Of a DNA stretch of 64,000 nt, positions 3,001-9,000 are shown in pieces. This DNA is from Escherichia coli (GTDB lineage Bacteria; Pseudomonadota; Gammaproteobacteria; Enterobacterales; Enterobacteriaceae). Position numbers: made by a program. Location of the stretch: NCBI RefSeq assembly GCF_041248615.1, contig NZ_CP158425.1; one strand, 5' to 3'. Each line of letters begins with the position of its first letter. The first letter of the stretch is position 1.

Positions 3001-6000
3001 AAATCAATATCACCCAGGGTATATATGTTGTAATCCATGTCAGACCTCAGTTACGTGTGCCACGAATACTTTCAGTGAAAGCCTTCCGTTGCAGGCGACG
3101 GTTATCCCAGGTTGAAATGACGTCCGAGCTGGTACCGACCTGGCTGTGCGATAGCTCATAGGCGGCTTTAACCTGTTTTGAGAGATTGTCTGTTAATCGG
3201 TTGAGATCATCCCTTTTACCCGACAGCGACTCACTCGGTATGCTCATGGTTGAAATTTTGGCCTCAACCTGGCGCAACATGTTGATTACGAGGCTCGTCG
3301 CAGCAATAGTGCTTATGTCCTGAATGTATGCGTACCCTTCCGGTGCTTCGAATGTTTGCAAAGAGTCGATAATGGTCGGGATGCCGATATAGGAGATAAT
3401 GCGTAATTCATCATCTGAAACACGAACGTCGTTGATGATTTTTTTCTGTACGTTTAAAAGAAGATCAGAAATGGTATCCTTCAATCCCTTAAAACCACCG
3501 TCATTAACTTCTGACATGACAAGGCACTGAGCCTTTCGTGGGGATGATGGATCTGGTGCCGGAGAACACTTGAGCATTTTAATTGATCCGCCAGCTGGTG
3601 GCCCCATGATGTAATCCGTGACAGTCATGGTAGACGGGCGGACTTCCATTCCCGCTTTTTCGCCTTTGCTATCCCAGTTGATAATGACAGTACCCACGAG
3701 AGACATAAGTTGTTCTGCCAATTTATAACCGGATAACTCCGTTACCCCTCCGATGTTCATTGTTCCCTTATCAATATCCATGAACGACATATAGAAGAGG
3801 TTACCACTGAATTTTTCAGCGAACTCTTCGGGATCCTTTGCTTTAACCTGAGAAGTGACAGCTTCAGGTGACTTTGTCATCGATGAGCCAAAATCAGGAA
3901 TGAGACCATTAATCGATCCCAGAATTGAGGCTGGTCCAGAGCTAACTGAGTTAGCGAACTGGCTTGGCGTACCCACGTTTTCAGAAAGGAAAGAGTAAGT
4001 TGCATTGCATGAATCTTTCGCAAATTTATTTAGCGCTTGCAGTTTGTTTTGGATGTCATTAATCGTTGCAGCACAGTCAGCACAAATAGCTGAAACAGCA
4101 ACGTTAAAAGCATAGATAGCCGCACCCTGGGCAATACCACGGGCCACCTGCACAAGCTGGTCCCCGTTGATCATGCTGAAGGACCCAAGAAAAACGTCAA
4201 TACCATTACAACCGACAGAAGCTTTTGGAAACGACATGGAAACAAGGTTGGTATTAACGTTTGTTGTTCGGTAAGACATTGACCCGCCAACTATGCCTGT
4301 ACGGGTTGCTGTGGAAAAGGTGGCCGGGCTGGTAGACGTCATCATGCCATTGAAAATGTTACGCATTGCGTTGTCTGCATTTGCAGTCGGGGCTAAAATT
4401 GCAGCACAAACAGAAAGAGACAAAAGTAACTTTTTGAAGTTGAAAACGGCATTACTGCGCATAAGTGCCTCCAAAACTGCCGCCAGCATTGAGATAATTG
4501 ACCGGATCGGCCGTAGGCATGTCATAGCCTTCGAGTTTTTGGTCCATTATTTTTTGAAGTAAGAATGGGTCTGATTCCATTTCGGATTTATTAACGGTAA
4601 TAACGCCATCATCACCGATGGTATATTGCCTTTTAATATCTAGAGTTGACTGAAACGAAGCGTCATCGATCAGATTCATGCCCTTCGCGGCAAGTATAAT
4701 AGTGTTCTTTAATTCATCAGCGGAGATCATGCCTTCACTAATGCGCTGAGCTGATGTCCCATCCTTTGAAACCAGGAAAATTGTAGGTACCTCTCGAATT
4801 TTAAATTGATCAATAATTTGTGCATTGGGGATGTTAAAATCCTGAAAAAGGCCATTATGCAATGGCCTTCCATCCATACTGATTGGAAGAATATCTACCG
4901 AATAATAGTTCTGCATAAATTGAAGTATTTGGCTCTCTTCGTGGCAAAACTGGCAAGTACTCTGGAAAAAGAAAAATAAACCTGACTTAGTAAAGATATC
5001 TTTCATTACCGTTTGCTGATTTTTTTCAACAACAGTGCGGTGAGCATCCAGTGCCACCTTTTCCACTGGTTGCCTGCGTTTTTCAGACATCATCGGGTTT
5101 TTAAGAAAATAATCTTTTGATTTGTCAGAAAAACGCGTACTGATATCCAGCATTAACCTTTGCGCCGTGTAATAACGTGATAGATTTTCTGCGGTAGGGT
5201 TATCCATTGCCTGCGTTAACAGTCGAGGCATATTCTCTTTTAGCCATTTTGAATTTAAATCTACCTTTTCCTCTTTTGAAGGCGAGCTAGCAGCACCGGT
5301 TGGTGGCAAAACCTTTTCTTCTTCAGCTTCGCTTTTTTTAGCAGGATCGTCATACCAGAAGAAACCCTTCTTATAAGCCTGGCCTGATACAAAGGGCGTA
5401 TCTTTTATTAGGGGTTGCTCAGGGCTGGCGTGGGCACCAGTAATTACCAAAGACATAAGCAAAACCATCTTTGAAGGCGCTAATGCAATACGAGTCATAG
5501 ACCGTTCTCCTTTTCTGATGCGGTTATGATGGCATACAAAAAAAAGGTTAGAGCTCGTATAGCATGGTCGTTTTTATGTTGAAAAGGACGGAAAAGGAGT
5601 GCTGACTAAGAAGATAGTCTCGGTGATGGAAAGATCATCCATCTTGCACATTGTGAAAAATCCGGTGTAACAAAAACATGGTTTTATCGAATATCTAAAA
5701 GCAAATATTGCTTTGAAAACAGGTGTATTAAGAGCTGAAAAAAATCATCACCAGTAACGCTGTTTCTATATTTCAAAGAAGGAATAGCTAAGGATCAAAG
5801 AAGCGAACTTAGGCAAGAATATAAAATATATTAATTGAAAGCGATTAAGAAGTCGTCATGCATAGAAGGTTTTAGAGAACCTAAGTAGTTTTACGTTTTC
5901 AACAGAAAAAAAGGTGAACATTTTTTGGAACGAAGAAAGACTGTATAAAGAAAAATCAAATTATATCTTTACTTGTCAAGAGTTAATATTTAAGTTGTAA

Positions 6001-9000
6001 CTAATATTTGATTGTAAAGCAAACAACAGAATTTGACTTAAGTCAATATTTAGATTCAGACAAGGCAAGTTTCGCGATATCTTTTTTAAATTTAATCTAA
6101 TTCTTCTTGAGAATACCTCTCTATGGCTGAAGCAGTTGAAGATAATCTGCAACGTGGACAATAAGCATCATTTGTCACTGGCACAATGTATGGGCGTTTA
6201 CATTTTTCGCAGGCACCTAGTTCTTCAATTTCTTTCATAGAAGTAAGGATTTCTATTATTTTATTAACTTCCGGTGCGCATACAAAGTATCCCAGATTAT
6301 GAAGGACACTCATTATTCGGTTGAAGTCAATTTGCCGAAAACTCGCTTCCGGATTTATTGGATCAAAACCAAAATAGTTAACTGCGACATCAATAACAGC
6401 AGAAAAAGCTCGGCGGTTATCTGTGCGTTTGCTCCAGCCCCGGATACCTTTTTTGAGTTTTGTTTTTGCACCAGGCTCAAAATCGATATTTTCAGCAACA
6501 TGATTACCGTACAAAATTCGTATTGTATTTTTATTTGCCCCAAGCGACATAGTCCTTGCTGCTCGCAATAGAGCATTAGCTTTTGTTTGATCGACCTTTG
6601 CCATATTAATAATCCTTTAACATAACTTTATTTGTTAAAGTGTTGAACACATCCTGACGGTGACTGGTGAACATAGTGTCATAACGTAATAGTTCCATCA
6701 AATCATCACTAACTTTTCCTAACCGGATGTCAGCAGACAATTCATAAGCCCAGGCAAAAACTTTCGTTTTAAGTGAAACACTCTCTTCAATATGCCCTTG
6801 TGAGAAAGCAATTGTACGTGGGAAAAGAACGACATCGTTAATTGTTTTTAACGATGAATAACCAATGTCTTTAATAGCATCAGCTGTAGTTGGTTTTAAA
6901 CCAAAGAAAACACTTACAAACTCTGGTGCGAGCATTGAGATAAAGAACACCTGCATAAAGTAGTCATTCTGTATATCAACACATTTAGAACGCAACTCAT
7001 GAATCTTCTTGGGATTATAGATATCCACTGTACCATTCAGAAAAGTCACTTTTTCACCGGCATCGTAAATACCATAGTCAATATCATTTGTATCATATTC
7101 ACGAATTACATTGGAATCACCGTCCAAGACCGCAGAAAAAAACCTCTCCCATGTAATTTCCTTTCCGAGTGTACGCGGAACCAAAAAACTACCTGGACGT
7201 GTTTCCACTTCAAAAGCTAAATCAGCGGCTGTACTAAATCCTTTCCCAAATAGGCGACGCTGGAGAAGAGGAGTCCCAGTTTGATATGCAGAAGATCCAT
7301 GCACAGGCAATAACATTAAAAATGCACGGTAACTACGAATAAGCGAAATCTCAGTGCGGAAAAGTTTACCGAGTAAGCTACGAGTTAAATTATCAGATTC
7401 TGACATGTGCTGATTGTCCTTGCGCCATTACAATTGTTCAAATCTTCAACATGGATTTTTTGTTAGGTGTTCGGTAGGGTGAAAAGTAACTTTTAGTATT
7501 TTCTTAAGGCTTGAATAAGCCTTAAATCTATCCCTTCAACCACACCGCTTACTTGTAACACTTTTTAACCAAACTGACCAGAATTTTATCAAAATTTCTT
7601 CGCATGCTAACGAAATGTGAAGCGATTAAAAAAAAACCTAAATCCAGCCCCTCCCAACGTTGGATTAGAATAACGACGTCTTTCACTGACCGTCATAAAC
7701 TGACATTTTTACTTTTCATCAACCTCATGCTTACATAGGATCACTAAACAAAGAAAAGTGACCCTATGAATGCCTCACATAGGGTCACTTATGTTTGAAA
7801 AGTGACCCTATGTAATGTCGTCATAGGGTCACTTTTTATAAAAGTGTCACTATGGACAAAGTTCCATAGGGTCATTTTTTTTGGAAAAGTGGCACTAGAT
7901 ATATGTATAACTTTAATAGAGCAATGCACATTATCAAAAGCAATAATCCACAATGGTCATTCCCTCAAAAGTAACTTTAGAGGGTAGCGATGGAAGTGAG
8001 GCTAAACTCGCTGTTACTGTTTCTGAAGGCCCCTCCCGAATGGGGGAAACAGCGAGTGCATTACATCTGTTCAATTCCCTCATCAAAGAGCATTCAAAAA
8101 TCTTCTGTTCGTGAAAAAAAACGGAAATTTCCTCCGGTATAGTAATTTCACATCAGGAGGCGTCATGAGTAATTCGAATCTTATAAGTTCTATAGAGCTA
8201 ACACGTAAAAATTTACGTGCTCAGATTGAAGGTTTGCGTGTTGAGGCTGAAGATCTCATTACAAAATACTGGATCAAGTGGAAGGAACGAAACCACCAAG
8301 AGATTAACCTTACCCGACATAGCAAAGTTCCAAAGAGGGAGTATCTGGGTTCTTACGCACCAAAAGTTGAGCTAATTGGTAATGCCAGAAAAGTAACGAT
8401 CACTTGGCATCAGTTCAGCCCTTATAAAACAAGAGCGCCTAGTCACATGTCAAAACGGGTGCAACCAATGAAAAGTGGAAAATATTCTAAGAACTGTTTT
8501 GTAAACCATGCCAGCTGGGAATACGAAATGATTTCTGAAACGGAAGCATTGCTGGAGCCTTACAGAGAAATGCTTGAGCTCTATCATTCAGCATATATCG
8601 AACTTGGACGAAAAATCCGTCAATACTCAAAAACTAAGGTGGCACAATGACCGACGCAATTATCACGGACAATGAGCGTATTAACATTGAACCAAAAGAT
8701 GTAATGGTAAAAGGTTCAAATAAAAAGCAAGGCGTAAACGCTCAAACTTCTACTCAACGTAGACCAGAGCACCAGGGTATGGCCAAAGTTATTATTAACC
8801 CCGGCACCCCAGATTTTAACCGGTTTTTAACTGCCAGAAATGGAGCAGTCATCAGAGGTTTTGATGATGTGAGTATCGCTATTTCCTCTCTCTTTAAAAC
8901 GGTTGATGCAGTTAAACATCCTGACCTTGTTCAGGCTATTCAGGATTGGTTCAACGAGCTGCATGAAGAAAACAATAAGATGAAAGAAAATCTTGTTGCT

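Follow-up and report, generated by a model that had tools for sequence, protein, structure and literature searches.

What a long AT-rich gap in front of the pilus-assembly genes of an IncHI2 plasmid does, and whether it is itself a target of the nucleoid protein H-NS, is the question raised by positions 5499-6091 of a 64,000-nucleotide (nt) stretch of Escherichia coli DNA (contig NZ_CP158425.1, assembly GCF_041248615.1), hereafter the window. IncHI2 plasmids are major carriers of mcr-1, extended-spectrum beta-lactamase (ESBL) and heavy-metal resistance genes, and they transfer efficiently only at temperatures under about 30 °C. We consider it roughly 60% probable, taking the model as a whole, that the gap serves the trhF-trhH-trhG ('F') operon as its promoter and regulatory region and is built of two parts, a proximal module adjoining trhF and a distal spacer. 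The F operon encodes mating-pair-formation (mating-pilus) proteins. The region controls three pilus-assembly genes, and knowledge of where its promoter and activator site lie would help in understanding variants that are derepressed or insensitive to temperature.

A first-pass annotation had described an AT-rich, curved-looking region free of open reading frames (ORFs), lying between divergent genes upstream of the TraF/TraH/TraG operon, and had proposed it as an H-NS silencing target in temperature-regulated transfer. Its coordinates proved exact: the stop codon of the trhY homologue ends at 6092 and the trhF ATG lies at 5498, leaving 593 base pairs (bp). The gap contains 32.0% guanine plus cytosine (GC) against 45.7% window-wide, and only 0.4% of all 593-bp windows in the 64 kilobases (kb) are as AT-rich; the window-wide minimum over this length (30.4%) starts at 5674, inside the gap, and the most extreme 300 bp, starting at 5816, fall to 26%. 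ORFs within the gap do not exceed 30 codons, save for a 61-codon ORF with a TTG start that overlaps the end of trhY. None of the small ORFs is conserved in the IncHI1 plasmid R27 or in a pNDM-CIT-type plasmid, tblastx between lineages revealed no conserved small ORF outside the proximal block of conserved DNA, and no gene is annotated under the gap match in the plasmid records examined, for which the PLSDB gene tables are incomplete. The lack of ORFs is unremarkable in itself, since it is expected in DNA of 68% AT. As had been stated, trhF (Pfam TraF), trhH and trhG follow immediately downstream of the gap. However, the genes on its two sides (6092-6604 and 4452-5498) do not diverge: they are co-directional, each encoded on the minus strand, and the gap is therefore downstream of trhY and upstream of trhF.

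A megablast search with positions 4400-7500 matched 963 plasmids, 959 of them with an identity of at least 99%. All 959 are typed as conjugative, with a MOBH relaxase and an MPF_F mating system, and the matches listed carry the IncHI2A replicon; the plasmid collection holds 961 records with this exact region. Judged by these matches, the stretch is an IncHI2 resistance plasmid. The annotated copy used for gene order was the IncHI2 plasmid pSTM6-275, which is 100% identical to the window over 4400-7500, and ORFs, annotation and the R27 layout agree on the order trhR-trhY-gap-trhF-trhH-trhG, all on one strand. For pSTM6-275, the published description reports thermosensitive transfer (PMC5923156).

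R27, the IncHI1 prototype, carries a 266-aa (amino acid) gene, a 170-aa gene, a 611-bp gap, trhF, trhH and trhG, and its F-operon promoter region occupies a position and gene order identical to those of the gap. The two gaps are alike in length (611 vs 593 bp) and GC content (35% vs 32%), and the R27 TrhY protein is 85% identical to the 170-aa protein of IncHI2. About 90 bp adjoining trhF are kept, including a T tract, the sequence TATGCCATCATA, a CGAGCTC block and the Shine-Dalgarno sequence; in blastn, positions 506-591 of the IncHI2 gap align with positions 523-609 of the R27 gap (E = 7e-7). In contrast, the distal ~480 bp of the two gaps have no detectable homology. Because the gene order and the R27 gene identities coincide, the gap is taken as the IncHI2 counterpart of the R27 F-operon promoter region, and we regard this orthology as very probable. 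In this respect the feature is real but ordinary, re-identifying a region already characterised genetically in R27.

What is known of regulation comes from that plasmid. In R27, trhR (R0123) and trhY (R0124) form the 'R operon' and trhF, trhH and trhG (R0126-R0128) the 'F operon', whose promoter region was employed systematically as a lacZ reporter by the Barcelona group (PMC7366339). The F promoter is activated by the plasmid proteins TrhR and TrhY, and HtdA counteracts this activation (PMC7366339). Array values for trhF were 129 at 25 °C and 20 at 37 °C (6.45-fold), and those for trhY were 397 and 200; in an htdA mutant at 25 °C, trhF rose to 3523 (27-fold) and trhY from 397 to 788 (2-fold) (PMC7366339). 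The much larger response of trhF than of trhY in this mutant indicates that the gap holds an independently regulated promoter and that read-through from trhY is limited. From the conservation described above, we infer that the promoter in the IncHI2 gap would likewise be activated by TrhR and TrhY and counteracted by HtdA.

The position of this promoter was sought by footprinting, in which the gap of the window was compared with those of R27, a pNDM-CIT-type Citrobacter plasmid (L005), two Klebsiella plasmids of the IncHI1B/FIB type (L006 and L007) and a Klebsiella grimontii contig (L013); the TrhY proteins of the Klebsiella group are 30-36% identical to that of the window. A genome scan for further lineages yielded two loci, one of them disrupted by an insertion sequence (IS), and the contigs of distant TrhY relatives were too short or IS-interrupted. 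Only the last 88-110 bp adjoining trhF can be aligned between IncHI2 and IncHI1 or the pNDM-CIT type (E about 1e-6). A single block is common to all six lineages, with the form T7-9, n, TATG-ss-AT-s-ATA, located at 5525-5545 and unique in the window; after the T tract, IncHI2, R27 and the pNDM-CIT type have TATGCCATCATA, where the three Klebsiella lineages have TATGGGATGATA. The three substitutions between these versions fall at -13, -12 and -9, and TG (-15/-14), A-11, T-10, A-8 and T-7 are invariant throughout, giving the sequence features of an extended -10 element. The block is read as an extended -10 promoter because this pattern of substitution and invariance is the one expected of such a promoter; its core would be TGcCATCAT in the window and TGgGATGAT in the Klebsiella lineages. 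Whether it is the core promoter we put at even odds, judging from the alignment. The hexamer lies 27 nt from the ATG in IncHI1 and IncHI2 and 25 nt in the Klebsiella lineages, a distance from which a transcription start near 5519 and a leader of ~20 nt carrying AAGGAG are predicted. No -35 hexamer was found at the proposed extended -10 promoter, and 5300-6300 contains no two-hexamer sigma-70 promoter, against 3.2 ± 1.6 expected from shuffles. Between IncHI2 sublineages (the window vs pC45-VIM4), the proximal 151 bp show 0 differences.

Upstream of the T tract, at about -42 to -35, a candidate activator box of the pattern TTAYnGAr keeps its register in all six lineages. It reads TATACGAG in IncHI2, TTACCGAG in R27 and TTATCGAA in the pNDM-CIT type, and TTATAGAA, TTATTGAA and TTATCCAG in the Klebsiella lineages L006, L007 and L013, respectively; in the window it overlaps the CGAGCTC block (5551-5557), which is kept in IncHI1 and IncHI2. 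A small dyad around the TTAT box was treated as chance, its possible stems falling in different registers in different lineages. Box and core were combined into a composite, T[TA]NNN[GC]A[AG] followed after 29-31 nt (mostly 30) by a -10-like hexamer, and scanned for in the 120 nt upstream of transfer operons. It occurs exactly once upstream of the R27 F, H (TTCGTGAA...TATAGT), AC and Z (TTATCGAA...TAGTAT) operons, exactly once upstream of IncHI2 F, H and AC and of pNDM-CIT-type F and H, and as two overlapping matches at the Klebsiella F promoter. The R27 R and AN promoters and the IncHI2 R promoter, none of them TrhR/TrhY-dependent, do not contain it. This distribution would fit an activator acting beside the -35 position.

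The H-type box (R27 loci L004 and L009) lies at two places in the window itself. At 8108-8143 on the plus strand, TTCGTGAA is followed 30 nt later by TATAGT, forming the putative H-operon promoter. The identical 8-mer TTCGTGAA recurs at 15699-15734, also on the plus strand, with GATAAT 30 nt downstream, at the junction of a 370-aa and a 226-aa gene in the H operon; this site may be an internal H-operon promoter.

The conserved proximal DNA might instead act as RNA: the promoter could lie further upstream, or trhF could be expressed by read-through from trhRY, with the T tract and the TATGCCATCATA block forming a long 5' leader that masks the Shine-Dalgarno sequence in the manner of a riboregulator or thermometer. 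The proximal 181 nt of IncHI2 do fold far better than shuffles (z = -3.98), and in the predicted fold the Shine-Dalgarno sequence and the first trhF codons are paired with the U8 tract and with the CUAUACGAG box; a local hairpin between U8 and the Shine-Dalgarno sequence is predicted at -10.6 kcal/mol (z = -1.84) in IncHI2 only, and a perfect TATAAT with a poor -35 is available on the sense strand at 5960-5965. However, the fold is not conserved (z = -1.08 for the R27 equivalent and -0.57 for Klebsiella), each lineage has a short-hairpin fold of its own (z between -0.6 and -1.8), R27 does not share the upstream TATAAT, and no Rfam family is matched at E <= 1. Moreover, with a mask that melts on heating, trhF would be switched on at 37 °C, contrary to the phenotype. 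We therefore consider a regulatory leader improbable. A FourU-type thermometer, or a hairpin masking the Shine-Dalgarno sequence, was tried as a candidate and rejected, as R27, the pNDM-CIT type and Klebsiella fold differently from IncHI2. As a separate observation, the promoter box CTATACGAG (5554-5562, minus strand) is complementary to trhF codons 2-5, CTCGTATTG (5484-5492), in 8 of 9 pairs. In R27, too, the minimum-free-energy fold joins the equivalent upstream segment to the beginning of the trhF coding sequence, both sequences differing from those of IncHI2; no equivalent of this complementarity was seen in the Klebsiella lineages.

Returning to the two-part model, the distal part of the gap is conserved in other respects than sequence. 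Gap lengths of 593, 611 and 615 bp in IncHI2, R27 and the pNDM-CIT type go with 32, 35 and 38% GC, vs 43-44% in flanking genes, and in five of the six lineages the gap stays richer in AT than the flanking genes. Compared with pC45-VIM4, the gap of the window differs at 13 of 593 positions (2.2%) vs 0.4-0.8% in the flanking genes, and all 13 differences lie at 5650-5985 (3.9% there). Natural insertions occur in the gap as well: ISKpn26 was mapped to 5788-5794 in p4281_EMB, NZ_CP043034 shows the same split match together with an ISKpn26 transposase, and IS1 lies at 5971-5980 in pCFSAN086836.

This record might indicate that the distal part is functionless debris, the remnant of a decayed gene or mobile element whose AT-richness reflects mutational bias, with only the proximal promoter mattering. 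The gap evolves fastest, its sublineage differences all lie in the distal part, homology with the IncHI1 gap is lacking there, and IS1 and ISKpn26 are tolerated in plasmids that keep the full transfer-gene set; in addition, a real gene of ~180 aa occupies the gap position, between the trhY-like gene and traF, in the Klebsiella IncHI1B/FIB-type plasmids and in neither IncHI1 nor IncHI2. On the other hand, gap length is kept in three lineages despite the loss of sequence similarity, and AT enrichment recurs across lineages. Decay of the ~180-aa gene was rejected as a source, tblastn finding no trace of it in the IncHI2, R27 and pNDM-CIT-type gaps. The R27 arrays further suggest that at 37 °C most transcription from trhRY ends ahead of trhF, so that some terminating property is needed. 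Debris thus appears an unlikely description of the distal part as a whole.

How transcripts might be stopped is suggested by the composition of the sense strand. Its C/G ratio is 1.53 overall, about 2 at 5780-5990 and up to 2.9 near 5520-5623, against a window-wide 99th percentile of 2.27. The fall from trhY (200) to trhF (20) at 37 °C in R27, together with this skew, would be consistent with possible Rho-type termination of untranslated read-through from trhRY. An intrinsic terminator after trhY was looked for and none was found, the tail being unstructured (z = -0.79). That the distal part serves as a terminating or insulating spacer is accordingly a tentative proposal. A still bolder and more doubtful version combines two claims: that the distal ~480 bp form a composition-coded insulator working with Rho and H-NS-type proteins, and that TTAYnGAr is the DNA site on which the TrhR/TrhY circuit acts, common to the F, H, AC and Z operons. 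If the insulator were real, sequence would drift while length, AT-richness and a G-poor sense strand were maintained; transcription from trhRY, called a constitutive activator operon, would be stopped and the pilus operon read only from an activator-dependent promoter without a -35; and the IS insertions at 5788-5794 and 5971-5980 would alter transfer regulation.

Three smaller, IncHI2-specific features were observed in this spacer, all on the minus strand and not conserved in R27: a perfect 14-bp palindrome, TTGACTTAAGTCAA, just past trhY (6033-6046); a dyad, AAAGCAA-TAT-TTGCTTT (5698-5714); and a consensus TTGACA and TATAAT only 8 nt apart (5960-5979), overlapped by the IS1 site, which is no promoter because its elements are too close. 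An IS1 copy also lies inside trhR (6606-7406) in pHNTS53-1 and its twin record NZ_MF135534, where it should abolish activation of the tra operons.

The remaining question is whether the gap is also a direct target of H-NS. Where H-NS binds in enterobacteria is determined chiefly by AT-richness of the DNA, and at 68-74% AT the gap is plausibly, on composition alone, the part of the window most attractive to the protein: its GC content (32% vs 45.7%) is the lowest in the window, and A/T tracts number 32 per kb, vs 13 per kb window-wide. H-NS (or H-NS/Hha, or a plasmid H-NS homologue) might then nucleate in the gap, coat it at 37 °C and block the F promoter. The 26% GC core, the AT-richness retained in five of six lineages and the 6.45-fold lower trhF signal of R27 at 37 °C agree with such silencing, as does the suggestion by the authors of the R27 study that the effect of H-NS/Hha on tra operons is more general than earlier reported (PMC7366339).

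Other observations, however, speak against direct silencing of the gap. With the wedge parameters of Bolshoy et al. 1991, its mean curvature is 20.1 degrees vs 18.6 window-wide, a value reached or exceeded by 25% of windows, and none of the 15 strongest curvature peaks of the window lies inside it; the region is thus not curved beyond background. No 10-11 bp period is seen in its AA/TT dinucleotides (P = 0.74), there is no enrichment of the high-affinity H-NS motif TCGATAAATT (1 site with at most 2 mismatches vs 1.66 in shuffles), and the gap contains no IHF consensus site and, for CRP, only 3-mismatch CRP-like matches at background rate. Relative to the conserved promoter module, the AT-rich core is 300-600 bp upstream, and the searchable literature yielded no H-NS binding data (chromatin immunoprecipitation or electrophoretic mobility shift assay) on this region from either IncHI1 or IncHI2. 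In R27, arabinose-driven trhRY (pBAD) strongly induces F-lacZ at 25 and 37 °C, and the promoter reported to be silenced by H-NS at 37 °C is that of trhR (PMC7366339). Since forced trhRY expression turns the F promoter on at 37 °C, direct H-NS silencing of the gap is unneeded for R27 thermoregulation and, if it occurs, can be overridden, and we hold it to be possible but rather unlikely as the main mechanism. The strongest wedge-model bend of the 64 kb (61.8 degrees per 31 bp) lies at ~7582, upstream of trhR, so that on this curvature model a curved H-NS target would fit the neighbouring gap (7407-8164) better than 5499-6091. Of the first-pass interpretation, the regulatory leader of the trhF/trhH/trhG operon and its link to thermosensitive transfer hold up in view of the R27 trhF data, whereas the specific mechanism of H-NS and curvature finds no support, curvature, phasing and motif all being at background.

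In the model that we favour, the proximal ~90-110 bp would contain a -35-less extended -10 promoter (TGcCATCAT) with a T8 tract in its spacer and a TTAYnGAr-like box at -42 to -35. This F promoter would be weak alone and fire only with TrhR and TrhY, encoded immediately upstream, with HtdA counteracting. The distal ~480 bp would separate the weakly expressed trhRY operon from the F promoter and would act by composition rather than sequence, ending untranslated read-through from trhY in a Rho-type manner and offering a platform to H-NS-type proteins. Temperature would reach the F promoter mainly indirectly: H-NS/Hha would shut down trhR at 37 °C and, for that reason, no activator would be present. 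The identity, layout, composition and conservation of the region are observed, and its regulation is documented in the R27 literature; the leads that are new here are limited to a testable promoter model, a candidate box common to co-regulated operons, and a spacer conserved in length and composition but not in sequence, most of the AT-rich DNA not being sequence-conserved.

A number of points weigh against this model. The regulation experiments were all carried out on R27 (IncHI1) and none on IncHI2. The -10 was assigned by interpreting a pattern of conservation; CATCAT is a weak hexamer, and the conserved block might be a protein operator or a leader element rather than a promoter. As for the composite, one match is expected by chance in 7-10% of 120-nt stretches (real sequence and shuffles), the scan did not find it ahead of the Klebsiella H and AC operons, and, because it was defined after the promoters had been seen, it is a lead and not a test. 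The excess of C over G is strong only in IncHI2 and R27 (C/G 1.5) and amounts to 1.0-1.2 in the other lineages. The features on which the model draws, together with the neighbouring genes, are given in Table 1.

Table 1. Coordinates of the gap, its proposed elements and its surroundings (window positions, unless a Klebsiella-group lineage is named)
Feature	Coordinates	Strand	Basis or remark
trhG	runs on to window edge	minus	PGAP name TraG N-terminal domain protein
trhH	3047-4525	minus	PGAP name TrhH
trhF	4452-5498 (ATG 5498-5496)	minus	Pfam TraF, E = 2.6e-51
Intergenic gap, trhY homologue/trhF	5499-6091	minus	ORF map, annotation, R27 layout, lowest GC
Shine-Dalgarno AAGGAG	5507-5512 (span to trhF ATG 5496-5512)	minus	sequence
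Candidate extended -10 core TGcCATCAT	5526-5534 (hexamer CATCAT 5531 to 5526)	minus	within TATGCCATCATA (5525-5536)
T8 tract in promoter spacer, about -26 to -19	5538-5545	minus	7-9 T in all six lineages, same register
Candidate activator box TATACGAG (TTAYnGAr), about -42 to -35	5554-5561	minus	register-conserved block, six lineages
G-poor, C-over-G sense strand, candidate Rho-dependent termination zone	5520-5990	minus	C/G ratio, no intrinsic terminator
Fast-evolving, apparently unconstrained AT-rich spacer	5650-5985		sublineage differences, no IncHI1 homology, IS insertions
trhY homologue, 170 aa	6092-6604	minus	synteny; 85% identity to R27 TrhY
trhR homologue, 266 aa	6606-7406	minus	synteny; one IncHI2 record labels the 266-aa gene trhR
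Second gap, truly divergent intergenic region	7407-8164		between trhR (minus) and mobI/traH (8165, plus)
mobI/traH, 245-aa gene, MobH relaxase, coupling protein	from 8165 on	plus	annotation
Extra ~180-aa gene	L006 3530-4072; L007 3773-4078; L013 3826-4542		Klebsiella-group lineages

The truly divergent gap, between trhR (ending at 7406, minus strand) and mobI/traH (from 8165, plus strand), holds a feature of its own. At 7730-7900 it contains an inverted-repeat array, AAAAGTGACCCTATG / CATAGGGTCACTTTT, with three pairs of arms of 15-38 nt separated by 9-nt spacers, which looks like the origin of transfer (oriT) or relaxosome binding region of a MOBH system.

The family of the TrhY homologue is extremely narrow, too small for its alignment to be deepened: a search of 1.84 billion representative proteins gave only 30 matches at E <= 1e-3, fragments for the most part. 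The protein has no sequence match in Pfam, NCBIfam or PDB. Its C-terminal CxxC-N13-CxxC motif is invariant and lies at about the position of the FlhC zinc site. No sequence, profile or usable structure link to FlhC, AcaC or SetC emerged: hhalign against E. coli FlhC gave a probability of 11%, confined to the zinc ribbon, and the AlphaFold2 (AF2) model of TrhY, with a predicted local distance difference test (pLDDT) score of 51, is too poor to compare.

Set beside known systems, the gap shares with H-NS-silenced regions such as the R27 trhR promoter and the tra promoters of the F plasmid its AT-richness, its horizontally transferred setting and its position upstream of transfer genes that are lower at 37 °C. 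It differs from them in lacking a curvature, phasing or motif signal, and in R27 the genetic data put the action of H-NS a step earlier, at trhR. A second comparison is with the AcaCD system of IncA/C plasmids and the SetCD system of SXT/R391 elements. TrhY and TrhR have no detectable sequence relationship to FlhC/FlhD-type activators, TrhR is called a membrane protein in a secondary source, and no paper linking TrhR/TrhY with these systems was found in the literature. In their overall organization, however, these are related transfer systems with the same logic: each combines a MOBH relaxase, MobI and an MPF_F mating system with a plasmid-encoded two-protein activator needed for several tra operons, and the activator box of AcaCD and SetCD reportedly lies where the -35 would be.

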